A stretch of DNA of 64,000 bases from contig JBMOMW010000057.1 in NCBI GenBank assembly GCA_049325255.1, forward strand, positions 3,804 through 67,803. The letters are read 5' to 3'. The notes below the pieces were generated by a model, which searched no databases, was not told the DNA's origin, and saw nothing but the letters and a program-made list of their open reading frames with translations. Both the position numbers and the translations under genes were made by a program. This stretch comes from Pseudomonadota bacterium. Its GTDB lineage: Bacteria > Pseudomonadota > Alphaproteobacteria > UBA11222. Below, piece after piece: positions 6,823 to 57,299 of the stretch (its first letter is position 1; every line of letters begins with the position of its first letter).

Positions 6823-8094
6823 ATGTCATCTGATAACAAGAAACCCGGGGGCTGGGATTTTCAATCACCCACACGCCGGCAATTGCTAATCGGCACGGCG
6901 GCGCTTGGCGCCGCAGCAATGCTGCCGCGTGGCGCCTGGGCGCAGGCATTCCCGACCAGTGCGGTCAATACAACCGGACTTGCGGTCACCGATACCGAGG
7001 TGACAGTTGGCATTCTGCATTCCGTCACCGGGACCATGGCGATTTCCGAAACCGGTTCGGTGCAGGCCGAGAAACTGGCCATTGCACAAATAAATGCAGC
7101 AGGCGGCGTGCTGGGCCGCCAGATCAAATTCATCCAGGAGGACGGCGCCAGCGACTGGCCGACCTTTGCTGAAAAGGCCAAAAAGCTACTTGTTAAAGAC
7201 AAATGCGCTTCGGTAATGGGCTGCTGGACATCGGCGTCGCGCAAGGCGGTGCTGCCGGTGTTCGAACAATATAATGGCATGCTGTATTACCCGACCTTCT
7301 ATGAAGGTCTGGAGCAATCCAAGAACGTTATCTATACCGGTCAGGAAGCAACACAGCAGATCATCGCCGGGCTGGACTGGGTGGTGAAGGAAAAGGGCGC
7401 CAAGAGTTTCTATCTGCTGGGATCGGACTATATCTGGCCGCGCACATCGAACAAGATCGCGCGCAAGCACATTGAGAACTTTCTCAAGCTGAAAGTGGTG
7501 GGCGAGGAATATTTCCCGCTTGGGCATACGCAGTTCAACTCCGTTATCAATAAATTGAAACTGACCAAGCCAGACGTGATTTACGCAATCATTGTGGGCG
7601 GCTCGAACGTGGCGTTCTACAAACAGCTTAAAGCCGCAGGCATTGATTTGACCAAGCAGACACTGGTCACAATCTCGGTGACCGAAGATGAAATTCTGGG
7701 TATTGGCGGCGAAAATATCGTTGGCGCCTATGCCTGCATGAAATATTTCCAGTCGCTCGACAATCCCAACAACAAGACCTTTGTCTCCGAATTCAAAAAG
7801 ATGTGGGGCGCAGAAACGGTTATTGGCGACGTCACGCAGGCCGCCTATCTCGGTCCCTGGCTGTGGAAACTGACGGTGGAGAAAGCAGGCTCCTTTGATG
7901 TCGATAAGGTGGCGGCGGCATCACCGGGCATTGAATTCAAGGGCGCGCCCGAGGGTTATGTGCGCATCCACGAAAACCACCATTTATGGAGCAAGACCCG
8001 CGTCGGCCTCGCGCGCCTCGATGGCCAGTATGACGTTGTGTATGAAACGGCTGACCTGATGGAGCCAAATCCCTTTCCCAAGGGCTATCAATGA
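6823..8094 (+). CDS. urtA: urea/short-chain amide ABC transporter substrate-binding protein (UrtA/FmdD), Tat signal
   Basis: Twin-arginine motif RRQLLIGTAALGAAA. Strong similarity to the UrtA/amide-urea binding protein family. Operon context with urtBCDE and fmdA. AGGAGG RBS at 6811-6816. Confidence 0.85.
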   Translation: MSSDNKKPGGWDFQSPTRRQLLIGTAALGAAAMLPRGAWAQAFPTSAVNTTGLAVTDTEVTVGILHSVTGTMAISETGSVQAEKLAIAQINAAGGVLGRQIKFIQEDGASDWPTFAEKAKKLLVKDKCASVMGCWTSASRKAVLPVFEQYNGMLYYPTFYEGLEQSKNVIYTGQEATQQIIAGLDWVVKEKGAKSFYLLGSDYIWPRTSNKIARKHIENFLKLKVVGEEYFPLGHTQFNSVINKLKLTKPDVIYAIIVGGSNVAFYKQLKAAGIDLTKQTLVTISVTEDEILGIGGENIVGAYACMKYFQSLDNPNNKTFVSEFKKMWGAETVIGDVTQAAYLGPWLWKLTVEKAGSFDVDKVAAASPGIEFKGAPEGYVRIHENHHLWSKTRVGLARLDGQYDVVYETADLMEPNPFPKGYQ

Positions 8095-8192
8095 TCTTTC
8101 AGTCATGTCCGGGCGGCGCGCCGCCCGGACGGTAAGGTTCAGCAGTCAATTTGGCAGCCCGCCATATACGGCCACCTGTAGGGAGTAACACG

Positions 8193-14125: not shown

Positions 14126-14881
14126 TTAAGTTCCGTGGCCCGGGATTTTTCCCAGCTTTTCATGCAACGCTTGGTGTGTCCCGCATTCTTCGGAGACCGA
14201 GCATTCGTTGCACGCGAAATTACCGGTCTTTCGCATATCCTTGATGGTAACACGCGCGCCGTCGACCGTAATACCCTGATCGCGCAATGTTTGCAGGGTG
14301 CGTGAGAAAGTTTCTTTTTCCATGTGCAGGCGCGAGGCTATCAAGGCTTTGGTATAAGGCAATTCAAACCCGCGCGGATCAAGATTGTACAGCACACAAA
14401 GTTTTTGCAGATAGCAGGCCACCATTTGGGCAGCGGACATGGCCGTAAGATGTTCTACGTCTACCTGCGCGCTATGCAGCCGGTCAGCGATGCCGGCCAG
14501 TAATTTTTCCGCGATATGATCGAAATCTTTGAAGTGCTTCCGCATCCAGGCAATGGGAATTTCAAGCAGCGAACAATCTTCGACCGCGCGCGCATTCATG
14601 GCATGCTCAGCCTGCCCGGCAACGACCTCATCGGCGTTAATGGAATCCCCTGCAATCAGGATATCATTGGTGACCTCACGCCCGCCCGGGGTCTCCCGGA
14701 AAATTTGCATGGCGCCCCGGCAGATCACGTAAAAATGCGTGACTTTATCTCCGTGCATAAACAGGAACTGTCCGCGGGTACAGCTAATTATCCGGCTGTT
14801 GCGGACGAGAATGGCGCCATCATCCAGCGAAAGATCTGAAAACAGAGGAAGCGCCCTGAGTGTATCCAGTGCGGCGGTCAT
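14126..14881 (-). CDS. Crp/Fnr-family transcriptional regulator (paralog 1) with C-terminal CxxC-x5-C-x2-H extension
   Basis: cNMP-binding-like domain plus an HTH with the E--SR recognition motif (ETFSRTLQTLRD) seen in FNR-type TTGAT-box binders. No N-terminal FNR Cys cluster. Instead ends in FACNECSVSEECGTH. About 80% identical to the ORF at 36558-37313. Confidence 0.85.
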   Translation of the reverse strand: MTAALDTLRALPLFSDLSLDDGAILVRNSRIISCTRGQFLFMHGDKVTHFYVICRGAMQIFRETPGGREVTNDILIAGDSINADEVVAGQAEHAMNARAVEDCSLLEIPIAWMRKHFKDFDHIAEKLLAGIADRLHSAQVDVEHLTAMSAAQMVACYLQKLCVLYNLDPRGFELPYTKALIASRLHMEKETFSRTLQTLRDQGITVDGARVTIKDMRKTGNFACNECSVSEECGTHQALHEKLGKIPGHGT

Positions 14882-17632: not shown

Positions 17633-18340
17633 TCAAAACCAGAAGCGGATTCCCGCAACCAGCGAGGGGACATTGATATCCTCGCCCTCATCGCGCGCGA
17701 TGTCTGCGGTTTGCCCCAGTTTGCGCTCCCAATTGACGCCGATATAGGGGGCGAATTCGCGCCGTATTTCATATCGCAGGCGCAACCCCAACTCGATGTC
17801 ACTGACGCCCGAACCGATGCCGCGCCCGCTTGTGTCCTGCGCCGCCAGATTAACCTCGAACGAGGGTTGCAGGACCAGACGCTGGGTCAGCAGCAGTTCA
17901 TATTCCGCCTCGAACCGGGCCGACAGTTCGCCCTCATTGCTGAGAAACGCCGCCGCATCGATTTCGAAATATTGCGGCGCCAGGCCCTGAAGACCGATCA
18001 CCGCGAAACCGCGTTCCTGATCCGGTTCGGGGTCGTAGCGAAGCCCCGCCTGCACATCGAAAAAATCTGTCACAAGATGCGAATAGAGCAGCTGCACTTC
18101 GGCTTTTTCCGTTTTGCCTCCGGCAAGTTTTTCGCCCTCGGTTTTCAGCCACGCCTTGTTATAGTCGCCGCCAGCCCAGCCCTGCGCCTCCCATTTCAGG
18201 CTGTTCCTGCCAGCATGGTTCCGGTACTCAAACTGGTCCGCCTGGAAGAAGCTGTAGTTCGGCTCATGTTCTTCCATCGCGGAAGCCTGACTTGTCAGCA
18301 TACAGAGTAATAGTGCAAGTCCGCTGATGCGCCTATTCAT
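17633..18340 (-). CDS. pcoB: copper resistance outer-membrane protein B (CopB/PcoB family)
   Basis: Signal peptide MNRRISGLALLLCMLTSQASA. CopB-family beta-barrel sequence. Overlaps the 3' end of the multicopper oxidase gene. Confidence 0.75.
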   Translation of the reverse strand: MNRRISGLALLLCMLTSQASAMEEHEPNYSFFQADQFEYRNHAGRNSLKWEAQGWAGGDYNKAWLKTEGEKLAGGKTEKAEVQLLYSHLVTDFFDVQAGLRYDPEPDQERGFAVIGLQGLAPQYFEIDAAAFLSNEGELSARFEAEYELLLTQRLVLQPSFEVNLAAQDTSGRGIGSGVSDIELGLRLRYEIRREFAPYIGVNWERKLGQTADIARDEGEDINVPSLVAGIRFWF

Positions 18341-20030
18341 GACCCGTCTCCCTATTGGCGGCAACCGGGCCTTCGACAATCACCTTGCGCATCATGCCCG
18401 TCGCCATGTGATAGAGCAGATGGCAATGAAACGCCCATTCGCCCATCGCGTCGGCGGGTACGTCCACGCTCAGGGATTGCCCGGGCGGCACATTGACCAC
18501 ATGTTTCAGCGGATTGAACTTTTTCTTGCCGGTGTCGAGTTGCATCCACATGCCATGCAGATGCATGGGGTGGCTCATCATGGTCTGATTGACAAATGTG
18601 AAGCGCACCCGCTCGCCATATTTCAGGCGGATGGGTTCGGCATCGGAAAATTTCACGCCGTCGATGGACCAGAAATAGCGCTCCATATTTCCGGTCAGCT
18701 TCATCTCGATCTCGCGGTCCGGTGCGCGATATTCCGCATAGGGTTTCATGGCTTTCAGATCGCCATACACCAGAACCTTGCCGCCCGGCTTTGCGGCTAT
18801 GGGCGCGAGGCCGCTCTGCATGCCAGCTTTTTCCGTCCCCCCCATATCCATGCCAGGCATGGCGCTGTGATCCATTCCCGCCATCCCGGCCATGGCGCCA
18901 TGATCCATTGCGGGCGCTGTATCCGCGCCCGGCGCTGCCCCATGATCCATGCCGCCCATATCCATGCCCATATCCGCCATGGTCAGTTGCGGGCGCGGGC
19001 GCAGCGCCGGAATTTCCCCGCTCATGCCTTGCGCAGGCGCCAGCGTTGCGCGCGCATAGCCGGTGCGGTCGAGAGATTCAGCGAAGATCGTAAAAGCTTT
19101 TTCTTCTTCAGGCTGAACAATCACGTCATAGGTTTCAGCAACCGCGATGCGCAGTTCATCCACCGGAACCGGCTGCACATTATTGCCATCGGCCTGCACC
19201 ACGGTCATTTTCAGGCCTGGAATGCGCACATCGAAATAGCTCATGCTGGAGCCGTTGATCAGGCGCAAGCGCACCCGCTCGCCCGGTTTGAACAGGCCGG
19301 TCCAGTTTTGCGCGGCGCTTTTACCGTTGATCAGGAATGTATAACCGCTGACATCGGAAATATCCGTGGGGGTCATGCGCATCTGCCCCCACGCGGCGCG
19401 ATCCTTCACGGTTGCCGCCAATCCCTTTTCCGAAACATCCCTGAAAAAGGTTCCAACGGTGCGTTGCGCATAATTATAATAATCGCTGTTTTTCTTCAGA
19501 TGGCCAAGGATGGCTTCGGGCTTTTCATCCGTCCAGTCCGACAGCATCACCACATAGTCGCGATCATATTTGTACGGCTCGCGCTTTGCAGGCGTGATGA
19601 TTATCGGGCCATACATGCCTTCCTGTTCCTGCAGGCCGGAATGGCTGTGATACCAGTAGGTGCCAGCCTGTTTGATCCTGAAGTTATAGGTGAACGTCTC
19701 GCCCGGTTTGATGCCGGGAAAGCTGATACCCGGCACGCCGTCTTGCGTGAACGGCAGCAAAATCCCGTGCCAGTGAAGGGACGTATCCGTGTCCATCTTG
19801 TTGGTCACATTGATGGTCACCTCCTCGCCCTCCGTAAATCGCAGGGTTGGTCCGGGTATCTGCCCGTTGATCGCCATGGTCAGGCGCTCCCCCCTGTCAT
19901 AGCCCGCGCGCATCTCATCAATCGTCAGGTTATAGGTTCCAGCGAACGCGCCGGAACCGGTGAGCAGTGTAAAGAGTGCTGCAAGGCCCACAAAAGCTAT
20001 GTAAAAATTGCGCATGATCATCCCCTTCAT
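18333..20030 (-). CDS. pcoA: copper resistance multicopper oxidase (CopA/PcoA)
   Basis: Copper-binding motifs HWHG, HSH, HPMHLHG, HCHLLYH. Met-rich insert MADMGMDMGGMDHG... 565 aa. Confidence 0.9.
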   Translation of the reverse strand: MKGMIMRNFYIAFVGLAALFTLLTGSGAFAGTYNLTIDEMRAGYDRGERLTMAINGQIPGPTLRFTEGEEVTINVTNKMDTDTSLHWHGILLPFTQDGVPGISFPGIKPGETFTYNFRIKQAGTYWYHSHSGLQEQEGMYGPIIITPAKREPYKYDRDYVVMLSDWTDEKPEAILGHLKKNSDYYNYAQRTVGTFFRDVSEKGLAATVKDRAAWGQMRMTPTDISDVSGYTFLINGKSAAQNWTGLFKPGERVRLRLINGSSMSYFDVRIPGLKMTVVQADGNNVQPVPVDELRIAVAETYDVIVQPEEEKAFTIFAESLDRTGYARATLAPAQGMSGEIPALRPRPQLTMADMGMDMGGMDHGAAPGADTAPAMDHGAMAGMAGMDHSAMPGMDMGGTEKAGMQSGLAPIAAKPGGKVLVYGDLKAMKPYAEYRAPDREIEMKLTGNMERYFWSIDGVKFSDAEPIRLKYGERVRFTFVNQTMMSHPMHLHGMWMQLDTGKKKFNPLKHVVNVPPGQSLSVDVPADAMGEWAFHCHLLYHMATGMMRKVIVEGPVAANRETGHE

Positions 20031-20596
20031 CTGGCAAAATCGATACGGCCCAACATACCGGACTCATAGTGCCCCGGCATGTTGCAGGCGAATTCAATCT
20101 CCATGGCTTTGGTGAATTTCCATACCAGTTCTTTGCTCTCACCTGGCGCCAGCAGGACGGTGTTGGGATCATCATGGCGCATGGGCATATCCTTGCCCTT
20201 TTTGGCATGGCTCATGCCGCCCATATCCATTTTGGAATGGTCCATGTTCATCTTCTCCGGGTCGATGCCGGTTGGGGTGAGCATGCCCATCTCCATCATC
20301 TCCGCCATTTCCTTGCGGTGCTCCGTATGAGCGGCCAGGGTGTCGATGCTGAACTCGTGCAGAAATTCGCCGCTGTTCTTCAGAACGAAACGAACGGTTT
20401 CGCCCTGCTTCACCGATATAGCGTCCGGTTCATAGTAATTATCAGCCAAATTGACTTCGATGGTGCGGGTGGCGGACGCGGGCGCGCCAGGCGCGCCAAA
20501 TTCGTAACCGTGACCGGCGGCGGCGAGCGCCGGAGCGGCAAGGCCGGAGACAACGGCGCTGAGTGCTACAGCCAGGGGTAAAAAGACGGGATTCAT
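20027..20596 (-). CDS. cupredoxin-domain copper-binding protein, Met-rich
   Basis: Signal peptide. CNMPGHYESGM is a type-1 copper site-like motif. Met-rich stretch MAEMMEMGM...MNMDHSKMDMGGM. Confidence 0.75.
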   Translation of the reverse strand: MNPVFLPLAVALSAVVSGLAAPALAAAGHGYEFGAPGAPASATRTIEVNLADNYYEPDAISVKQGETVRFVLKNSGEFLHEFSIDTLAAHTEHRKEMAEMMEMGMLTPTGIDPEKMNMDHSKMDMGGMSHAKKGKDMPMRHDDPNTVLLAPGESKELVWKFTKAMEIEFACNMPGHYESGMLGRIDFAR

Positions 20597-31500: not shown

Positions 31501-32611
31501 ATGAATATTCTGACGATTAATGCAGGCAGTTCCTCTGTCCGTTTTGAATTGTTCACAGTAGTTGATGACGTTCCGCAATCGTTGGGACAGGCAATGTCGG
31601 CGGCAGGTGATCCAACCACTCTGTTCGCGCAGTTGGCGGCAGAAGCGGGGCTGGGGATAGAACCACCGTCCGCCGTCGCCCATCGCTGGGTGCATGGCGG
31701 ACCACAGGTGCGCAAGGCGGCGTTGATCGACGCGAATATAGAAGCGGCGCTTGCACAGGCCGCGCCTCTGGCGCCGCTGCATGCGCCCGCAAGCCTGGCC
31801 TGGCTTGCCCATTGCCGCACAATCATGGGGCCAGATGTGCGCCAGATTGTCGTTCCTGACACAGCGTATTTCGCCAGCATGCCGGATGTTGCAGCTAATT
31901 ACGCCTTGCCGCGGGAACTTTCCGCGCTGCACGGCCTTCGCCGTTACGGCTTTCATGGTCTGGCGCATCAGTCCCATGGTCACCCAATGGCTTGCCAGCC
32001 GTGGCGGCGATTTTGGCGATGCAAAGGTGATTTCATTGCAATTGGGTGCAGGGTGTTCCATCACCGCGAGCCGTGGTGGCGCGCCCGTGGACACCTCGAT
32101 GGGCTTCACGCCGCTGGAAGGCCTGGTCATGGCCACCCGCGCGGGCGATGTGGATGCGGGTTTGCTGTTTTATCTGCAACGCGAAGCAGGGATCGATGCA
32201 GCGCAACTGGAAACGCTTTTACAAAAGGAATCGGGACTGCTCGGCCTTTCGGGCGTCAGTGGAGACATGCGGGTTCTGCTCGCCGCTGACAAGTCCGCGG
32301 CAAAAAGCGCCATTGCGCTTTATTGCTATCGCGCGAAAAAATATATTGGCGCCTATCTTGCGGTGCTGGGCGGCGCCGACGCTGTGCTGTTTGGCGGCGG
32401 CGTTGGTGAGAACAGCCCGGAAATCCGTGCGCGCATACTTGCAGGAATGGGATGGTGCGGCCTTAAGCTCGACACCGCCGCAAATCAGGCGCCAAAGTTG
32501 CAAGGCGGACGTATCAGCACCGCCAATAGCAAAATCGAAATCGCCGTGATCCGCGTCGATGAAGCGCACATCATGGCGCAAGCCGCCGCTGATCTGCTAC
32601 GGGGAAAGTAA
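31501..32611 (+). CDS. ackA: acetate kinase, interrupted by a +1 frameshift near 31975-31985 (pseudogene or sequencing error)
   Basis: ORF 31501-32289 matches the AckA N-terminus (MNILTINAGSSSVRF..., RYGFHGLAHQ) and then loses similarity. ORF 31751-32611 in the next frame continues VTQWLASRGG...ISLQLGAGCSI...SMGFTPLEGLVMATRAGDVD...GGGVGENS. Confidence 0.7.
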
Positions 32612-36557: not shown

Positions 36558-37313
36558 TCAGCCGCTGTGCCTTATGTGTTTATCCAGCTTTTCATGCAGC
36601 ACACGGTGTGTTCCGCATTCATCAGCCATTGAGCATTCGCCGCACGCAAAGTTATCGGCCTTGCGCATATCCTGGATGGAGACGTGCGTGCCAGCAACCG
36701 TAATCCCGTGATCCCGCAGGGTTTGCAGCGTGCGCGAGAAAGTTTCCTTTTTGATCCGCAGACGCGAGGCGATCAGGGTTTTCGTGTAAGGCAATTCAAA
36801 CCCGTGCGGGTCGAAATTATACAGCACACAGAGCTTCTGAAGATAGCATGCGACCATCTGCGATGCGGACATGGTGGTAAGCTGTTCCGCCTCGAGCTGT
36901 GTGCCATGCAACCGGTCGGCGATGCTTGCCAGCAGTTTCTCCGCCATATGGTCGAAATCCTTGATATGCTCGCGCATCCAGGAAATCGGGATTTCGAGTA
37001 GTGAGCAATCTTCCACTGCGCGGGCATTCATCTGATGCGCGTCCTGACGGGCAAGCACTTCATCGGCATTGATGCTGTCCCCGGCTATCAGAATATTGCT
37101 GGTGACTTCGTGTCCGCCCGGCGTCTCACGGAAGATTTGCATGGCGCCCCGGCAGATCACATAAAAATGGGTGATCTTGTCCCCGTGCATAAACAGGCAC
37201 TGTCCGCGTTTGCAGATGATGATCCGGCTGTTGCAAACCAGCAGGTCGCCGTCCGCCCTGCTGATATCCGAAAACAGGGGAAGCGCCTGAAGTGTATCCA
37301 ATGCGGTAGTCAT
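36558..37313 (-). CDS. Crp/Fnr-family transcriptional regulator (paralog 2) with C-terminal CxxC-x5-C-x2-H extension
   Basis: About 80% aa identity to 14126-14881. Same E--SR HTH (ETFSRTLQTLRD). C-terminal FACGECSMADECGTH. Confidence 0.85.
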   Translation of the reverse strand: MTTALDTLQALPLFSDISRADGDLLVCNSRIIICKRGQCLFMHGDKITHFYVICRGAMQIFRETPGGHEVTSNILIAGDSINADEVLARQDAHQMNARAVEDCSLLEIPISWMREHIKDFDHMAEKLLASIADRLHGTQLEAEQLTTMSASQMVACYLQKLCVLYNFDPHGFELPYTKTLIASRLRIKKETFSRTLQTLRDHGITVAGTHVSIQDMRKADNFACGECSMADECGTHRVLHEKLDKHIRHSG

Positions 37314-44123: not shown

Positions 44124-45161
44124 TTGATCAGGCCCCAGGAAATCTCTATCGAAGAAAAGGTGCGATTCCTGCAGCATCCGGCTGCCTATGGGCAACCGGG
44201 CACAGCGGAAGTGCTGGTCAAGGAAACGCATATGTCATGGGTGTTTCTGACCGGCGCGCGCGTTTACAAACTCAAGAAACCAGTCCGTTATGATTTCCTT
44301 GATTTCAGCACCCTTGATGCGCGCGAAAGAAATTGCCGCGAAGAAGTCCGGCTCAACCGCCGGCTGGCGGAAAATGTCTATCTCGGCGTTCTGCCGCTAA
44401 CGCTGAGCAGTAAAGGCGAACTTGCCATCGGCGGTGAGGGGCCATCGGTCGACTGGCTCGTCTTGATGCGCCGCCTCCCCTTGGATCGCATGCTGGATCA
44501 AGCCATCGAGAGGAGCACAGTCAGCCGCGCTGAAATCATCTCCGTCGCAGACCGGCTTTCGGATTTTTACGGACTTGCGCCGCCTGCGGAACTGACGCCG
44601 GAGGCTTATGTAGAGCAGTTCATCCGCGAGCAGGCGCAGACGCGGGCGGTGCTCACAGACCGGACTTTTGACTTGGACGGCGCGCGGATCGGGAAAATTC
44701 TTGGCGGCATAGAGGATATATTGTTTGCGCAATCTGAACTTCTGAAGGCGCGTGTTGAAGGTGGCAGGATCATTGAGGGACATGGGGATCTGCGGCCTGA
44801 ACATGTATGTCTCAATACGCCCCCGGTCATCATCGATTGCCTGGAGTTCAACCGGGGATTCCGGCTGGTTGATCCGGCCGACGAACTGACTTTTCTTGGC
44901 CTTGAATGCGAGCATCTCGGGGCGGGCTGGATTGGACCAGCGCTGTTAAACCGCTACACTGAGCGGCTTGGCGATACGCCATCGGCCAGGCTTATCGCGT
45001 TCTACCGCAGCCACCGCGCCTGCCTGCGGGCGCGCCTGTCACTGGTTCATATTCTGGAGCACGACCCGCGCAAACCGGAACACTGGCTGCCCCTGGCGCG
45101 CCACTATCTGGAACTGGCCGATACGACCGAACTCAATCCCGGCTTTCCAGAATCTCATTGA
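44124..45161 (+). CDS. aminoglycoside-phosphotransferase-like kinase (Rv2004c-like N-terminal family)
   Basis: HGDLRPEHV catalytic-loop motif. N-terminal SWVFLTGARVYKLKKPV...FLDFST...R motif is typical of the dormancy-associated APH-like family. Start could be the ATG near 44230. Confidence 0.65.
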   Translation: MIRPQEISIEEKVRFLQHPAAYGQPGTAEVLVKETHMSWVFLTGARVYKLKKPVRYDFLDFSTLDARERNCREEVRLNRRLAENVYLGVLPLTLSSKGELAIGGEGPSVDWLVLMRRLPLDRMLDQAIERSTVSRAEIISVADRLSDFYGLAPPAELTPEAYVEQFIREQAQTRAVLTDRTFDLDGARIGKILGGIEDILFAQSELLKARVEGGRIIEGHGDLRPEHVCLNTPPVIIDCLEFNRGFRLVDPADELTFLGLECEHLGAGWIGPALLNRYTERLGDTPSARLIAFYRSHRACLRARLSLVHILEHDPRKPEHWLPLARHYLELADTTELNPGFPESH

Positions 45162-46113
45162 CCGATCCTCCCTCGCGCAACACGCGGATCGTTTCGGCAA
45201 ACAGCGGCGCGGCGCTGACGATTTTGACATGGCCTGCAAGCACATCTTTGCCGAGCCGGAACGGCGGAAGGGAGTCGGTGATGAATAACCTGGCGAGATC
45301 GGGATGGCGCAGGGTGCCTGCTGCATCACCCGTAAACAGCCCATGGGCCGCAAACCCATAAACCGCCGTTGCGCCCGCTTGGCGGCAAGCCTGAGCCGCG
45401 CGAAGCATCGTTCCGCCGCCGCCGATCAGATCATCGAGGATCAGAACCGCCGCGCCGCTTACGTCGCCGGCCAGAAGCGTGCCGCTGACTTTTCCGGCGC
45501 TGCGGCGCTTGTCCATGAAGGCGCCGCCAACGGGCCGGCCAAGCGCCGTTTCCAGCGCCTCGCGAAACAGTTGCGCGCGCTTTACGCCGCCGGGGTCGGG
45601 CGATGCGACCACCAGTGGTTCGCTGCCAGCAAGTTCGCCTGCGCATTTGGTAAATAAACGCCTCGTGTCGAGATGAACCGTCCGGCAGCGAAAGGCGTTC
45701 TGGAAGGCGACGATATTGTGGACTTCCAGCGTGACGACGCAGTCAGTCCCAACGGCTTCCAGAAGCTGTGCGATATAGCGTGTTGTCACCGGATCATGGC
45801 TTTTGGTCTGCCGGTCCTTCCGGGCATAGGCCAGATAGGGAATGACCGCCGTTACGCGCGCCGCGCCGTTTTCCTTCATCGTCGCGATAAAAAAAAGCAG
45901 CCGGCAAAGCTTGTCGTTTGGCGACTGCTCCGGACCGCCATACAGGCTTTGGATAATATAGACATCCTCGCCGCGCACGCTCACCAGCGGCCGCGCCTTG
46001 TGCTCGCCATCCTCAAACTCGCGCTCTTCGTGCGCATCAAGCGTGACGCCAAGCGCCCTTGCTACCTTTTCGCCGAAGGTCCGGCTGGCATTGAGAGCAA
46101 ACAGTTTCATCAC
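45133..46113 (-). CDS. ribose-phosphate pyrophosphokinase-like protein (Prs family, divergent)
   Basis: Prs-like N-domain (FEDGEHKARP) and PRPP-binding loop VLILDDLIGGGGTM. 326 aa. Confidence 0.75.
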   Translation of the reverse strand: MMKLFALNASRTFGEKVARALGVTLDAHEEREFEDGEHKARPLVSVRGEDVYIIQSLYGGPEQSPNDKLCRLLFFIATMKENGAARVTAVIPYLAYARKDRQTKSHDPVTTRYIAQLLEAVGTDCVVTLEVHNIVAFQNAFRCRTVHLDTRRLFTKCAGELAGSEPLVVASPDPGGVKRAQLFREALETALGRPVGGAFMDKRRSAGKVSGTLLAGDVSGAAVLILDDLIGGGGTMLRAAQACRQAGATAVYGFAAHGLFTGDAAGTLRHPDLARLFITDSLPPFRLGKDVLAGHVKIVSAAPLFAETIRVLREGGSVNEILESRD

Positions 46114-46781
46114 CGTGTACGTCTGGCGCCGGGTGGGGGATGCGGAGCGGGCGCCTGCGCCATTAGCGCGCGCATCTCTTCGTCGTCTATCTGATGGAAA
46201 TCCTGATAATAAAGGCCGATTGCCCCGAAATAGTCATGCGTTTCAAGGCAGACGATCTCGTCGACCGTGTGCTTCAGGGCTGCGATCGTGTCCGCCGGCG
46301 CGACCGGCGCCGCTAGCACGAGCTTTTTTGGGGCAAGCGCCCGGACGGCGAGAATGGCCGCTTTGATTGTTGCGCCCGTCGCTATGCCGTCATCGACGAT
46401 AATTGCCGTTTGCCCCGGGATGCTGACGCGCGGCCTGCCAGCAAGATAGGTCTGCTGGCGGCGTTTGATTTCCGCAAGCTGCCGCTGCTTCTCTGCCTCG
46501 ATATAGGCAGGGGAAATATCAAGTTGGGCTATAATATCCTCGTTGAGGACAAGCTGTGGTTTTTCGCCGTCGACTACGGCGCCGATGGCAAGCTCCGGCT
46601 GCGATGGCGCGCCAAGCTTGCGCACGATAATGAGGTCGAGCGGCGCGTTGAGCAGCTTCGCGATTTCAAGCCCGACGGGCACACCGCCGCGCGGCAGCGC
46701 CAGCACGCAAGCATTCTTATTCTTGTAACCCATCAGCCTGGCCGCCAGGCGTTGGCCTGCTTCTTCACGGTTGGCGAACAT
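46110..46781 (-). CDS. phosphoribosyltransferase-domain protein
   Basis: PRTase type I PRPP-binding motif TAIIVDDGIATGATIKAA. 4-nt overlap with the downstream prs-like gene. Confidence 0.75.
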   Translation of the reverse strand: MFANREEAGQRLAARLMGYKNKNACVLALPRGGVPVGLEIAKLLNAPLDLIIVRKLGAPSQPELAIGAVVDGEKPQLVLNEDIIAQLDISPAYIEAEKQRQLAEIKRRQQTYLAGRPRVSIPGQTAIIVDDGIATGATIKAAILAVRALAPKKLVLAAPVAPADTIAALKHTVDEIVCLETHDYFGAIGLYYQDFHQIDDEEMRALMAQAPAPHPPPGARRTR

Positions 46782-47455
46782 CAGGAAATCCCCTTGCCTG
46801 GGCGCAAATGCGCGAGGAACCAGTCGCGAGCCAGTTCTATGACCTGCTCGAGCGCGCCCTGTTCCTCGAACAGATGGGTGGCGCCCGGCACAATCTCAAG
46901 CGCTTTGGCGCAACGCAGCTCTGCGAGAGCCGCCTGATTGAGAGAAAGCACCTCGAAATCTTGCCCGCCGGCAATGAGTAAAGTGGGCGCCGTGACGCGC
47001 CGCAACGCTGTGCCGGCAAGATCGGGCCGGCCGCCACGCGAGACCACCGCGCGAAACATGTCCGGTGCGCGCGCCGCCGTGACAAGCGCCGCCGCCGCGC
47101 CGGTGCTCGCGCCGAAAAGACCCAGGGGCAGGGCTGCCGCCGAAGGCTGTGTCACGACCCATTCGGCCGCCATTGACAACCGCCCGGCCAGCAGTTCGAT
47201 ATCGAACACATGCGAACGGCTGGCCGCTTCCTCCTCGCTCAGAAGATCAAAAAGCAACGTGCCGAAACCTGCCTCCCGCAGGGCGTTGGCGACGTGCATA
47301 TTGCGCGGGCTGAGCCTGCTGCTGCCGCTGCCATGGGCAAACAGGACAAGGCCATGCGCGGCCCTGGGGATATCAAGCGTACCCGGCAGCCCAAGCGGCG
47401 GTAACCGAACTTCCTCAAGCGTTGCGGATTGCATGGATTTACCCGACATAGGCAC
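46781..47455 (-). CDS. alpha/beta hydrolase (dienelactone hydrolase family)
   Basis: GLVLFAHGSGSS and the nucleophile elbow GLFGASTGAAAAL. Start/stop overlap with the PRTase gene. Confidence 0.7.
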   Translation of the reverse strand: MPMSGKSMQSATLEEVRLPPLGLPGTLDIPRAAHGLVLFAHGSGSSRLSPRNMHVANALREAGFGTLLFDLLSEEEAASRSHVFDIELLAGRLSMAAEWVVTQPSAAALPLGLFGASTGAAAALVTAARAPDMFRAVVSRGGRPDLAGTALRRVTAPTLLIAGGQDFEVLSLNQAALAELRCAKALEIVPGATHLFEEQGALEQVIELARDWFLAHLRPGKGIS

Positions 47456-47499: not shown

Positions 47500-49122
47500 C
47501 TACATCTGCATTTCTGCGCCCGGCATGTGCGCCCTCTCAGGCTCTGGAATTTCGGTCATGGTCGCCTCGGTCAGCAGCAAAATACCTGCCACGGATACGG
47601 CGTTTTCAAGGCCGATACGCACGACCTTGGTTGGATCAATAATGCCGGCTTCCACCAGATCGACATATTCTTTCCGCCCGGCGTCAAAACCGTAATTGCC
47701 CTTGCCTTCGAGCATACGGGCGACCACCACGCCGCCGTCCACCGCCGAGTTTTCGGCAATCTGGCGTGTTGGCGCCTCAAGCGCGCGTTTGACGATGAGG
47801 ACGCCGGTCCGTTCATCGCCTTCGCATTTCGCCTCCTCCTGCGCCACGGCCGCGATGCAGCGCAGCAGCGCCAAACCGCCGCCGGGTACAATGCCCTCCG
47901 CGACCGCAGCCTTGGTGGCGTTGATGGCGTCGTCGAGCGCCTCTTTTTTGGATTTCATTTCCGCTTCCGAAGGCGCGCCGACACGGATCACGGCGACGCC
48001 CCCGGAGAGCTTCGCCAGGCGCTCCTGCAGTTTTTCTTTGTCGTAATCGCTGGTGGTCTTTTCGATTTCGCGGCGGATTTGTTCAACGCGGCCGTCGATT
48101 TGTGCACGATCACCGCCGCCGCCGATAACCGTGGTATTATCCTTGTCGATGACAACGCGCTTGGCGCGCCCGAGCTGCTCAAGCGTCATATGCTCAAGCT
48201 TCAGGCCCAGCTCCTCGGAAATCACCTGTCCGCCTGTTAGAACTGCAATGTCCTGCAGCATCGCCTTGCGGCGGTCGCCAAATCCCGGGGCCTTGACGGC
48301 GCAGCATTTCAGCACACCGCGGATCTGGTTGACGATGAGCGTGGCGAGCGCCTCGCCCTCAACTTCCTCCGCAATCACCAGCAGGGTTTTCCCGGCCTTT
48401 ACGACTTGTTCGAGCAAAGGGATCATGTCGTTGAGGACGCTGATCTTGCGATCAGACAGCAGGATCAGGCAATTTTCCAGCACCGCCTCCATCTTTTCCG
48501 GATTGGTGATGAAATAGGGTGACTGAAAGCCCCGGTCGAACCGCATGCCTTCAACAACATCAAGCGCTGTTTCCGTCGTCTTGGATTCCTCGACCGTAAT
48601 CACCCCGTCGTTTCCGACCTTGTCCATCGCCTCCGCGATAAGCTCGCCGATGGCGGGATCATTGTGCGCGGAGATCGCGGCGACCTGCGCCTTCTCCTTG
48701 CGTGTCGCCACCGGCCGCGATAAGGCCCGCAACGCTTCTATCGCGGCCCTGGCGCCCCGATCCAGACCGCGCCTGATATCGATTGCGCTGGCGCCCGCGA
48801 CAACATTGCGGATGCCATCGGCCAGTATTGCGTGCGCCAGGATGGTTGCGGTGCTGGTGCCGTCGCCAACCATCTCGCCGGTCTTTTCCGCCGCCTGGCG
48901 CAGCATCCGGGCGCCCAGATTCTCTTCCGGATCTTTGAGATCGAATTCCTTGGCGATGGTGACGCCGTCGTTACAGACGATGGGCGCGCCCCACTTTTTT
49001 TCGATCAATACCGATTTCGATCGCGGCCCCAGCGTTACGCGGACTGCGTCAGCAAGCTGCGCAGCGCCACGCAGTATTTTTTCGCGGGCTGCGGATCGGA
49101 AAAAAACCTGTTTATGCGCCAT
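47500..49122 (-). CDS. groL: chaperonin GroEL paralog (no adjacent groES; C-terminus lacks the GGM repeat)
   Basis: Full-length Cpn60 similarity ([35 protein letters not shown]). Ends ...[18 protein letters not shown]. No co-chaperonin ORF upstream. Confidence 0.9.
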
Positions 49123-49209
49123 CCGTTATCTCCCTGAATTGTGGCGTGGCGGGCGATTTCGTCACAATGGAAATAAAGTATCGAAAAAAATCTGATATTG
49201 AATTGATTT

Positions 49210-49223
49210 CGGTCAAGGCAGAC
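49210..49223. promoter_or_regulatory. FixK/FNR-type box TTGATttcgGTCAA in the groEL/hsp20 divergent promoter
   Basis: TTGA-N6-TCAA core read directly between 49122 and 49277. Confidence 0.45.
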
Positions 49224-49276
49224 GCGGCTCGCAGTACTTAGTTTGTAATCCTAACCCCCTAACAGGAGAAACAGAC

Positions 49277-49807
49277 ATGACCGAACCGACATCCAAACTA
49301 CCTGTACTTACGGAGAAAAAATCATCCGGGCTGCAGACCTGGCATCCGATCGAGAGCCTGCGCCGTGAGGTCGACCGGATATTCGAAGATTTCGACCGGG
49401 ATTTCTGGCGCGCGCCTTTCCGCCGCTCGTTTCAGGACATCGAACCGGTGCTGCGGCGCGGGTTAAGCTGGGGCGCCAGTCCGGCTATTGACATTGTGGA
49501 CAAGAGCGAAGCCTATCAGGTCGTGGCGGAATTGCCCGGCATGGATGAAAAGAATGTTGAGGTAAAGCTGGTCAACGGCAGTCTGACCATCAAGGGCGAG
49601 AAGCGCGACGAGAAAGAGGAGAAGAAAAAGGATTACTATCTTCATGAGCGCAGCTTCGGCTCTTTTGAACGCAGCTTCGCCCTGCCCGATGAAGTCGATG
49701 CCGACAAGATTGAAGCGAGCTTCAGCAAAGGCGTGCTTACAGTGACCCTTCCCAAAAAGCCAGAAGCCGTGAAGCCCGAGAAAAAGATCGAGGTCAAGGC
49801 TGCCTGA
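49277..49807 (+). CDS. Hsp20/alpha-crystallin family small heat-shock protein
   Basis: Alpha-crystallin domain (AIDIVDKSEAYQVVAELPGMDEKNVEVKL...GVLTVTLPK). Confidence 0.9.
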   Translation: MTEPTSKLPVLTEKKSSGLQTWHPIESLRREVDRIFEDFDRDFWRAPFRRSFQDIEPVLRRGLSWGASPAIDIVDKSEAYQVVAELPGMDEKNVEVKLVNGSLTIKGEKRDEKEEKKKDYYLHERSFGSFERSFALPDEVDADKIEASFSKGVLTVTLPKKPEAVKPEKKIEVKAA

Positions 49808-52432: not shown

Positions 52433-52508
<76 letters not shown>

Positions 52509-55590: not shown

Positions 55591-55751
55591 TCGGTCGCGC
55601 CAACGCGGGCGCAGCAGGCCGGATCTCCCCGGAACAGGATCCCAAGCGGATATGCGCGATCAGGCCATTTGGCCGACGATGGGGCTTTTTATGCTTGACG
55701 CGGATCAAATTATATACGGAAGAGACCGGCTAAAATTTTATTATATATAGC

Positions 55752-57299
55752 ATGCAAGCCAGTACCGGCAGAATGGACCACATTACAATGACAATGACCG
55801 AAACACGACCAACGCCTACGTCAAAGCCGAAGCAGGAAAGCACCCATTTTGATGTCATAATCGCCGGGGCGGGCATCTCCGGAGTGGGAGCTGCGTACCA
55901 TCTTACCCAACAGTGCCCGGATAAAAGCTTTGTCGTCCTTGAAGGACAGGAGAGCTTTGGCGGCACATGGCACACCCACCGTTATCCCGGCATCCGCTCC
56001 GATAGCGATCTCTATACTTTTGGCTACCGTTTCAAGCCGTGGATCGGCGCGCCAATTGCAACAGCAGAAGAAATTCTTTCCTATATGGGTGAAGTCATCG
56101 AGGAGAACGGCCTCGCCCGGCATATCCGTTACCGGCATAAAATCACGTCGGCGAGCTGGTCGAGCAAGAACAATCTCTGGACCCTGGAGGTCACCCGCAC
56201 GGATACGGGCGAACAGCTTCATTTCACCACCAATTTCCTCTGGATGTGCCAGGGCTATTACCGCCACGAGAAGGGATATACGCCAGAATGGGAGGGGATG
56301 AAGGATTTCAAGGGCGTGATCGTTCACCCGCAACAATGGCCCGAAGATCTGGATTATAAGGGCAAGCGGGTCATCGTGATCGGTTCCGGCGCGACGGCGG
56401 CGACCGTTGTTCCGGCAATGGCGGCCGACTGCGCGCATATCACGGTGCTGCAACGCTCGCCTACCTATTTTATTCCAGCACGCAATGAGAACAAACTGGC
56501 CGACCAGTTGCGCGCGCTGGAGATCGACGAAATCTGGATCCATGAAATTGCGCGTCGGCAGATCCTGCAGGAGCAGGCCGAATTCACCCGGCGCTCGTTC
56601 GAGGAGCCGGAAGCGGTCAAACGGGATCTGCTCGGCGCCGTTCGCGCCTATCTGGGGCCGGACTATGATATAGAAAAGCATTTCACGCCGAAATACCGGC
56701 CATGGCGCCAGCGCGTCGCCTTTATTCCGGACGGCGACCTGTTCAGGGGCATCGCCTCGGGAAAAGCGTCGATGGTCACAGACGAGATCGAAAGATTTAC
56801 GGAAAAGGGCATCCTGCTAAAGTCCGGCGAAGTGCTGGAGGCCGATATTATCGTCACCGCAACGGGCTTCGATCTCAGCGTACTCGGCGATATCGGCTTT
56901 ACCGTGGACGGCGCCCCTGTCGACTTCTCGAAGACGGTAACCTATCGCGGGATGATGTTTACCGGCGTGCCCAATATGGTGTGGATTTTTGGGTATTTCC
57001 GCGCCAGTTGGACCTTGCGCGTGGACCTGGTTGCCGATTTCGTATGTCGACTGTTCAATCACATGAAAAAGAAGCATGTACGCAAGGTCACGGTGGCGCT
57101 CCGGCCCGAAGACAGGGATATGCCGCTCAAATCCTGGATTGACCCGGAAAACTTCAATCCCGGCTATCTGATGCGCGGCATGCATCTGATGCCCAAACGG
57201 GGCGATAAGCCGGAATGGCAGCACACACAGGATTACTGGACCGAGAAGAAGGAGCTGCCGAAGGTTGACCTTGACGCAAGCGAGTTTCATTACGAATGA
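55752..57299 (+). CDS. flavin-containing / Baeyer-Villiger-type monooxygenase
   Basis: FAD motif VIIAGAGISGVGAA, FMO/BVMO fingerprint FKGVIVHPQQWP, second Rossmann GKRVIVIGSGATA. Probable start is MTMTETRP at about 55788. Confidence 0.8.
   Translation: MQASTGRMDHITMTMTETRPTPTSKPKQESTHFDVIIAGAGISGVGAAYHLTQQCPDKSFVVLEGQESFGGTWHTHRYPGIRSDSDLYTFGYRFKPWIGAPIATAEEILSYMGEVIEENGLARHIRYRHKITSASWSSKNNLWTLEVTRTDTGEQLHFTTNFLWMCQGYYRHEKGYTPEWEGMKDFKGVIVHPQQWPEDLDYKGKRVIVIGSGATAATVVPAMAADCAHITVLQRSPTYFIPARNENKLADQLRALEIDEIWIHEIARRQILQEQAEFTRRSFEEPEAVKRDLLGAVRAYLGPDYDIEKHFTPKYRPWRQRVAFIPDGDLFRGIASGKASMVTDEIERFTEKGILLKSGEVLEADIIVTATGFDLSVLGDIGFTVDGAPVDFSKTVTYRGMMFTGVPNMVWIFGYFRASWTLRVDLVADFVCRLFNHMKKKHVRKVTVALRPEDRDMPLKSWIDPENFNPGYLMRGMHLMPKRGDKPEWQHTQDYWTEKKELPKVDLDASEFHYE

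Follow-up and report, generated by a model that had tools for sequence, protein, structure and literature searches.

Extra GroEL copies are common, and few of them have a defined signal or role. Among the seven groEL copies of Bradyrhizobium diazoefficiens, blr4635 (groEL5) is 29.4-fold down in a fixK2 deletion at 0.5% O2 and is associated with a FixK2 box (Mesa et al. 2008, as reproduced in PMC9104804, Table 2). We describe a groEL paralog of this GroEL5 (blr4635) type in a stretch of 64,000 nucleotides (nt), hereafter the window, from contig JBMOMW010000057.1 of a Pseudomonadota metagenome-assembled genome (MAG). The gene lies at 47500..49122 on the minus strand, encodes 540 amino acids (aa) without a Gly-Met tail, and shares a divergent promoter region, with an FNR/FixK-type palindrome in it, with the small heat-shock gene hsp20. 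In our judgment the gene quite probably encodes an accessory chaperonin of the GroEL5 type, driven at low oxygen together with hsp20 by an FNR/FixK-family regulator, using the housekeeping GroES, and supplying folding capacity when energy is low.

The resemblance to the Bradyrhizobium gene is detailed. GroEL5 of B. diazoefficiens USDA110 (BAC49900.1, annotated 'Chaperonin GroEL 5'), with which two Bradyrhizobium loci of our survey (L084 and L089) share a 90% cluster, is 78% identical to the window groEL product over 534 residues, at 540/541 aa and with the same tail start. Both genes lack an adjacent groES, have an hsp20 nearby, and have a FixK/FNR box upstream. The arrangements differ in that Bradyrhizobium has its hsp20 on the groEL strand, about 0.5 kb downstream and with a separate box, whereas the window hsp20 is divergent with one common box, and in that Bradyrhizobium groEL5 is not followed by the hydrolase, phosphoribosyltransferase (PRTase) and prs genes that follow the window groEL. 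The gene beside blr4635, blr4637 (hspC2), is given a 111-fold value and is named among the targets validated by in vitro transcription (PMC9104804); the hspC2 box, TTGAGCAAAATCAA, occurs verbatim downstream of groEL in L089. A second described relative is pRL90041 of Rhizobium johnstonii 3841 (WP_011649577), a solo gene for a protein of 539 aa that is 76% identical to the window groEL product. The gene has a perfect box centred 86.5 nt before its start codon and lies within an island of universal stress protein (USP), BON and host-attachment genes; it is borne on plasmid pRL9, which also carries fixK, hfixL and fixNOQP, and it has no adjacent hsp20. The genome paper lists it as a cpn60 with chromosomal paralogs (PMC1557990), and we found no study of its function or expression in the literature beyond that paper.

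For the hsp20 partner only, the nearest described case is RLV_1399 of Rhizobium leguminosarum UPM791, an hsp20 that is about 50-fold up at 1% O2 in an FnrN-dependent manner (PMC11784457); its TTGA-N6-TCAA anaerobox is centred 87.5 nt from the start codon, and no divergent groEL is described. GroESL3 of Bradyrhizobium (bll2059/bll2060) resembles the window gene as an extra chaperonin tied to a low-oxygen or symbiotic regulon and not to heat shock, but it has its own groES3, is controlled by NifA and sigma-54 with no FixK/FNR box, and lies in the symbiosis island. In mycobacteria, groEL1 is the copy linked to groES. Its product, GroEL1 (Cpn60.1), is comparable as a non-essential paralog with a non-GGM tail, but that tail is His-rich, whereas the window tail contains a single His and much Glu and Pro, and there is no sequence-clade relationship between the two. 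A groEL1 knockout is reported to have a survival defect under low aeration (review PMC5904260), and mycobacterial chaperonins are reported to purify in the form of lower oligomers (PMC10952152). An earlier sequence-only reading of this DNA had drawn an analogy to the extra GroEL copies of rhizobia and mycobacteria. For rhizobia the relationship is closer than analogy, GroEL5 being an orthologue; the mycobacterial comparison lapses, there being no His-rich tail. The Burkholderia lxa locus was also considered as a home of such a GroEL and was dropped, the paper listing the housekeeping groESL only.

The window gene encodes a full-length Cpn60, scoring 767 bits against the GroEL model TIGR02348 (cut-off 582) and 245 bits, at 2.5e-72, against Pfam Cpn60_TCP1 (PF00118, cut-off 34). 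The top scorer among six GroEL models was NCBIfam NF009489 (PRK12851), at 876.8 bits (cut-off 464). The protein is 55% identical to E. coli GroEL and shares its domain layout together with the residues for ATPase activity and apical binding; E. coli GroEL is unlike it in its groES-groEL operon, its (GGM)4M tail, its heat-shock control, and a T50-K51 pair where the clade described below has C50-N51. The ATP residues T30-P33, D52, D87-T91, D398, G415/G416 and D495 are all in place. When the apical substrate- and GroES-binding positions 199, 201, 203, 204, 234, 237, 259, 263 and 264 were compared with those of E. coli GroEL, only the conservative changes Y199F, L234I and V263I were found, the other positions being identical. 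The R197-E386 bridge and the inter-ring contacts (R452, E461D, K105R, E434) are kept as well, and dN/dS against six relatives is 0.06-0.10. From these retained contact residues, a double-ring tetradecamer cycling with GroES would be expected.

This is the single GroEL in the 64-kb window, and no GroES accompanies it there: tblastn with three GroES queries over the whole 64 kb gave a best E value of 0.83. As a positive control, these queries were run on four canonical plasmid groEL genes and detected the groES immediately ahead of each (E values of 1e-23 to 1e-50), which makes the negative in the window meaningful. The translated C-terminus has no (GGM)n. The sequence-only reading had described a full-length Cpn60 with no upstream co-chaperonin open reading frame (ORF), with a C-terminus other than (GGM)n, and head-to-head with an Hsp20 gene across a promoter holding a TTGA-N6-TCAA box; the profile scores, the GroES search, the translation, and the 154-nt spacer treated below agree with it on each of these counts. 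The gene does not classify as part of a canonical groESL operon, as recognized by groES upstream, a Gly-Met-rich C-terminus, and CIRCE or heat-shock control.

The window groEL belongs to a sharply separated and strongly conserved GroEL clade. When 72,556 plasmids were searched by tblastn, 21 records came out at 73-79% identity to the window groEL, from Bosea, Rhizobium, Sinorhizobium, Ensifer and Agrobacterium, and two more in the 60-80% band, while all others (about 1,300) were at or below 58%. Identity inside the clade is 73-100%, and to canonical GroELs it is at most 58%. The protein database holds thousands of relatives 86-89% identical to the window protein, nearly all of exactly 540 aa. 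Scanning one genome per species, with a clade-specific C-terminal alignment as the query, we found at least 549 species genomes with a clade relative. Carriers include Bradyrhizobium, Mesorhizobium, Bosea, Pseudolabrys, Thalassobaculum, Borborobacter, Stellaceae, Acetobacteraceae and Burkholderiaceae. The clade signature is a length of about 540 aa (540 aa in 61 of 74 species loci), [IL]PE followed by 13 acidic and Pro-rich residues, and C50-N51; the window groEL has all of these. We turned up no solved structure of a clade member, the best match in the PDB being an ancestral reconstruction, and the clade appears never to have been studied biochemically.

A few clade members occur in MAGs labelled Gemmatimonas, Gemmataceae, Candidatus Cybelea and Acidobacteriota. 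Members at L050, L076, L078 and L012, from MAGs labelled as the first three of these, are 77-88% identical, and one 'Gemmatimonas' protein (P0148) clusters at 90% with a Bradyrhizobium protein; these out-of-group members may be binning errors or very recent horizontal transfers. Two copies of the GroEL5 type were seen on separate contigs in single MAGs (L031 with L038, and L037 with L062).

Conservation across 224 unique clade sequences bears on whether these proteins still work as GroES-dependent folding machines. D52, D87 with the two residues after it, D398, D495, T30-P33, G415/G416, S201, Y203, F204, L237 and L259 are unchanged in 224 of 224, as are E386 and R452; V264 and T91 are each found in 223 and R197 in 219. 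The remaining apical and inter-ring contact positions show only conservative replacements. At 25 positions the clade is fixed unlike five canonical GroELs, including T50C, K51N, T90S, F44W, N153H and R395A. Every one of the 224 has T50C and K51N, 99% have T90S, and all three changes lie beside the nucleotide pocket. NDG is the motif of group II chaperonins. Cysteines are conserved at positions 50 (100%), 274 (95%), and 422 and 433 (88% each), the last adjoining the inter-ring contact E434. The tail runs 16 residues past TMTE in 207 of 219 sequences, with the consensus IPEPKKERxPEPEMAM and a composition of 23% Glu and 18% Pro; tails of proteobacterial GroEL paralogs have been termed 'pattern-free' (PMC11978752).

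These fixed changes could be taken to mean that the protein has a GroES-independent or non-folding role, as a holdase partner of Hsp20 or as a single-ring, lower-oligomer or redox-sensitive form. The pocket substitutions T50C, K51N and T90S, the four cysteines, the acidic, proline-rich tail in place of GGM, and the lack of a linked groES in 73 of 74 loci would suit such a role, as would the finding that E. coli GroEL deleted for its GGM tail is unable to replace the wild type (PMC11978752). Set against it are the apical GroES- and substrate-binding residues, invariant or conservatively replaced throughout the 224 sequences, and the retention of R452, E461D, K105R, E434 and the R197-E386 bridge, a pattern that looks like that of a GroES-using double ring. 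We regard a GroES-independent role as unlikely. With the ATPase and the GroES-binding surface both intact, the simplest reading is that GroES is supplied by the housekeeping operon.

The divergent promoter region common to groEL and hsp20 spans 154 nt (49123..49276). The hsp20 gene itself, at 49277..49807 on the plus strand, encodes a 176-aa alpha-crystallin small heat-shock protein (Pfam HSP20, 9.5e-28). Between the two genes, at 49203..49216, is the anaerobox TTGATTTCGGTCAA, a perfect TTGA-N6-TCAA palindrome; measured from its centre, the ATG of groEL is 87.5 nt away and that of hsp20 67.5 nt. On the groEL side, 21-26 nt past the box, stands a GATACT hexamer whose position would be compatible with class II activation, in which the box is centred near -41.5 from the transcription start. 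A sigma-70 consensus scan gave no significant promoter matches. No CIRCE element was found with up to 3 mismatches allowed (sigma-32 promoters were not searched for), and an Rfam scan of 44-53 kb at E values up to 1 found only a tRNA-Ala, with no ROSE thermometer.

The absence of CIRCE bears on a further alternative, that this is the sole housekeeping GroEL of the organism, with its groES outside the window. The view is limited to 64 kb of the genome and the catalytic residues are all intact. We nevertheless consider this highly improbable. The clade is at most 58% identical to canonical GroELs; its described orthologues are accessory copies beside groESL, in B. diazoefficiens with its seven groEL genes and in R. 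johnstonii, where pRL90041 has chromosomal paralogs (PMC1557990); multi-chaperonin bacteria always retain one Gly-Met-tailed copy (PMC11978752); and the window gene is part of an accessory island that is flanked by tRNA genes and varies in cargo.

We surveyed 74 species loci with a complete 5' end for the features seen in the window. GroES was found within about 7-8 kb of the clade groEL in one of the 74, L060, where it lies 5.4 kb off on the opposite strand; this was the sole match of the three GroES queries over the window and 92 loci. In 48 of the 74, the 250 nt ahead of groEL contain a perfect box, where the background in these box-rich loci is 0.058 per 250 nt; such boxes cluster 58-88 nt from the start codon. 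In about 10 of the 26 loci without such a box, a co-directional ORF upstream, often hsp20, has a box 55-113 nt ahead of it, an arrangement that suggests an operon with groEL. On the plasmids, each of the six loci has a perfect box, or two, 57-120 nt ahead of groEL. The window arrangement, with divergent hsp20 and groEL genes and one or two boxes in a spacer of 132-248 nt, recurs in seven other loci from different taxa (for example, with box distances of 75.5/66.5 nt in L013 and 83.5/65.5 nt in L038). In the transposon-flanked copies L001 and L009 the perfect box is lost.

In principle, the palindrome might serve hsp20 only, or be incidental for groEL, the gene being mainly a heat or general-stress chaperonin under sigma-32 or some other control. 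It is true that hsp20 is the better documented FNR/FixK target: RLV_1399 (PMC11784457) and hspC2 are both hsp20 genes, and the comparative FixK regulon of Dufour et al. includes Hsp20 and phosphoketolase, with GroEL not listed (PMC2908626). In addition, blr4635 is 1.5-fold up on desiccation (PMC4519974). Yet the box is found upstream of clade groEL genes that have no adjacent hsp20, in pRL9, Bosea, S. fredii, Ensifer, L008, L010 and L093; its distance from the groEL start is confined as described above; blr4635 shows 29-fold dependence on FixK2 (PMC9104804); and neither CIRCE nor ROSE was found. We think it quite unlikely that the gene belongs mainly to a heat or general-stress response.

Instead, low oxygen very probably turns on expression of the window groEL by way of a CRP/FNR-family regulator, to judge from the box and from the Bradyrhizobium orthologue. 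As oxygen falls, an FNR/FixK-family dimer would bind the single palindrome TTGATTTCGGTCAA and activate both divergent promoters; the island's own regulator, encoded 10 kb away, is a plausible activator. The output on one side would be hsp20, and on the other a single transcript of groEL that probably also covers hydrolase, PRTase and prs. The groEL gene would have lost its linkage to groES and swapped the Gly-Met tail for an acidic, proline-rich one, and its product would work with GroES from a housekeeping groESL operon, assumed to lie elsewhere in the genome. In the microoxic or anoxic, low-energy state, GroEL would then add folding capacity while Hsp20 would hold unfolded proteins. The proposal of the sequence-only reading that this is a specialised GroEL induced at low oxygen is well supported by the conservation of the box, the regulator in the island and the orthology with blr4635.

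Several observations count against this account of an oxygen-controlled accessory chaperonin. No perfect box is in promoter position in 16-26 of the 74 loci, so the link between box and groEL is strong but not universal. The box of Bradyrhizobium blr4635 is imperfect (TTGCGCTAGGTCAA) and lies at -150, and we found no report of in vitro transcription validation of blr4635 itself. The mild desiccation response of blr4635 (PMC4519974) means that oxygen may not be the only signal. In the window itself, the box is a consensus match, from which we infer induction in the host, and the housekeeping groESL is assumed.

Three genes follow groEL on the minus strand: an alpha/beta-hydrolase gene, dienelactone-hydrolase-like, at 46781..47455 (Pfam Hydrolase_4 and DLH); a gene for a phosphoribosyltransferase-domain protein at 46110..46781 (Pfam Pribosyltran, 2.3e-16); and a ribose-phosphate diphosphokinase (Prs) paralog at 45133..46113 (TIGR01251, 228 bits, cut-off 113). 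The gap between groEL and the hydrolase gene is 44 nt, one less than the 45 nt first read, with the gene order and strand as first described. AAGGA stands 6 nt ahead of the GTG start of the hydrolase gene, the hydrolase and PRTase genes overlap by 1 nt, and the PRTase and prs genes overlap by 4 nt. A terminator consensus scan found no terminator-like site in the 44-nt gap. The spacing suggests that hydrolase, PRTase and prs are very probably transcribed with groEL as one operon.

It had also been proposed that the chaperonin is dedicated to the clients encoded in its island. Strict synteny was examined as a sign of dedicated clients and discarded, because the order groEL-hydrolase-PRTase-prs is kept only in L093-L095 and is loose elsewhere. 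Among the 74 loci, Hsp20 is a neighbour in 20 (adjacent in about 15, whether divergent, in tandem or downstream), PRTase in 17, Prs in 16, a 345-aa protein without profile matches in 17, and the hydrolase in 10. With linkage this loose, we reject the proposal as unsupported. Other recurrent neighbours are USP, host-attachment protein, PpsA, glucokinase, a LonC-like protease, nitroreductase, BON and CBS proteins, and the ATPase inhibitor zeta subunit. On the Sinorhizobium/Ensifer plasmids, a gene annotated 'ATPase inhibitor subunit zeta' directly follows the clade groEL (L004, 9671-10000; L006, 9649-9966), a neighbour that fits an energy-saving, dormancy-type regulon.

The 345-aa protein is encoded in the window at 44124-45161 on the plus strand, divergent from an acyl-CoA synthetase-like gene, and has no Pfam or NCBIfam match. 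Its homologues near clade groEL, PRTase and prs, in the 17 loci just mentioned, are 45-52% identical, and the equivalent neighbour in some genomes is annotated 'bifunctional aminoglycoside phosphotransferase/ATP-binding protein'.

The groEL/hsp20 box is one of 11 perfect TTGA-N6-TCAA sites in the window, where 0.87 would be expected; none of 100 dinucleotide-preserving shuffles reached 11. All 11 are intergenic, nearly all stand ahead of a gene start, and 10 fall within 21000-50000. They are found ahead of LemA (21187), ahead of a cyclopropane-fatty-acid-synthase-like gene (23252), between the divergent LTXXQ and P-type ATPase genes (26212 and 26419), before a beta-CASP metallo-beta-lactamase (MBL) hydrolase gene followed by a thymidine-phosphorylase-family gene (32742), before a nitroreductase gene (35790), before a CRP/FNR regulator gene (37402 and 37637), and between the divergent acyl-CoA-synthetase-like and 345-aa protein genes (44040). 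By their number and placement, the boxes mark the stretch of 21-50 kb as a compact FNR/FixK-type regulon island. The host MAG has a GC content of about 57%.

Further island genes encode phosphoketolase, acetate kinase and an acetoin-type E1/E2 pair. The acetate kinase appears split into two overlapping ORFs in different frames (31501..32289 and 31751..32611), with Pfam covering profile positions 85-183 only; this is either a frameshift, by assembly error or in a pseudogene, or a mis-called start. The content of the island also recalls that of the mycobacterial DosR regulon, which includes HspX, CtpF, the Acg nitroreductase and a hydrolase-PRTase fusion (Rv0571c). Besides the genes already discussed, Table 2 of PMC9104804 lists USP, host-attachment protein, nitroreductase, ppsA, phosphoketolase-acetate kinase and thymidine-phosphorylase-MBL hydrolase, and the last four types are all present in the window island.

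The island's CRP/FNR-family regulator is encoded at 36558..37313 on the minus strand (Pfam cNMP_binding and HTH_Crp_2), and a second, closely similar one is encoded at 14126..14881, also on the minus strand. Both proteins are 251 aa long and have an E-TF-SR (ETFSR) recognition helix, a reader of TTGAT half-sites, and a C-terminal C-X2-C-X5-C motif (NFACGECSMADEC) whose cysteines are positioned like those of Bacillus subtilis Fnr and unlike the N-terminal cluster of E. coli FNR. Matches to the NCBIfam models for FtrB, Fnr and FixK were all below cut-off, and we therefore name these regulators FNR/FixK-family without a subtype. Judging by its recognition helix and location, the regulator at 36558..37313 is likely the cognate regulator of the boxes, and the two boxes upstream of its gene suggest autoregulation.

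The remaining box, at 55695-55708, is about 50 nt ahead of an FMO-like monooxygenase gene (55752-57299) that belongs to the core genome and not to the island; in the sister genome L093 the gene again has a box upstream (4741). An oxygen-using FMO behind an anaerobox is odd, and the box there could act in repression. Upstream of the island, at 17633-20596, is a copper-resistance cluster for the CopB outer-membrane protein, a multicopper oxidase and a cupredoxin, which has no bearing on the groEL finding.

The island abuts a tRNA-Ala(CGC) gene at 52433..52508. In the closest relative (L093-L095, GroEL 95% identical), the core flank of argG, tRNA-Thr, FMO, tRNA-His, TPR, folD, YggT and tRNA-Ala is identical, with the tRNA-Ala of L093 at 8088-8163. 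Between this tRNA and groEL, L093 has a Fic gene where the window has an M15 peptidase, an L,D-transpeptidase and hsp20, a swap at a shared core flank that points to exchangeable cargo at the island edge. Despite its loss of hsp20, L093 retains the groEL box, centred 121.5 nt from the ATG.

That the Bradyrhizobium orthologue is already known to be activated by FixK2 means that the regulatory claim itself is not new. To this the present analysis makes a modest addition: a family-wide rule, a solo groEL linked to the box, with an acidic tail and nucleotide-pocket changes, in at least 549 species, which extends a transcriptome result from one organism; the tie between clade and FNR/FixK box spans many Alpha- and Betaproteobacteria. 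The surrounding 30 kb forms a compact, tRNA-flanked low-oxygen island that gathers genes which in Bradyrhizobium are scattered FixK2 targets. A more adventurous proposal, which we put forward tentatively and consider doubtful, is that the GroEL5 type is an adapted, mobile 'hypoxia chaperonin', in which Cys50-Asn51 (a group II-like NDG), Cys274, Cys422, Cys433 and the acidic Pro/Glu tail in place of GGM would tune the protein to reduced, low-ATP cells or make it redox-switchable, working with the co-regulated Hsp20 to preserve the proteome in oxygen-limited dormancy. The GroEL5 type is in any case a clean candidate for learning how chaperonin tails and nucleotide-pocket changes may adapt folding machines to hypoxia.

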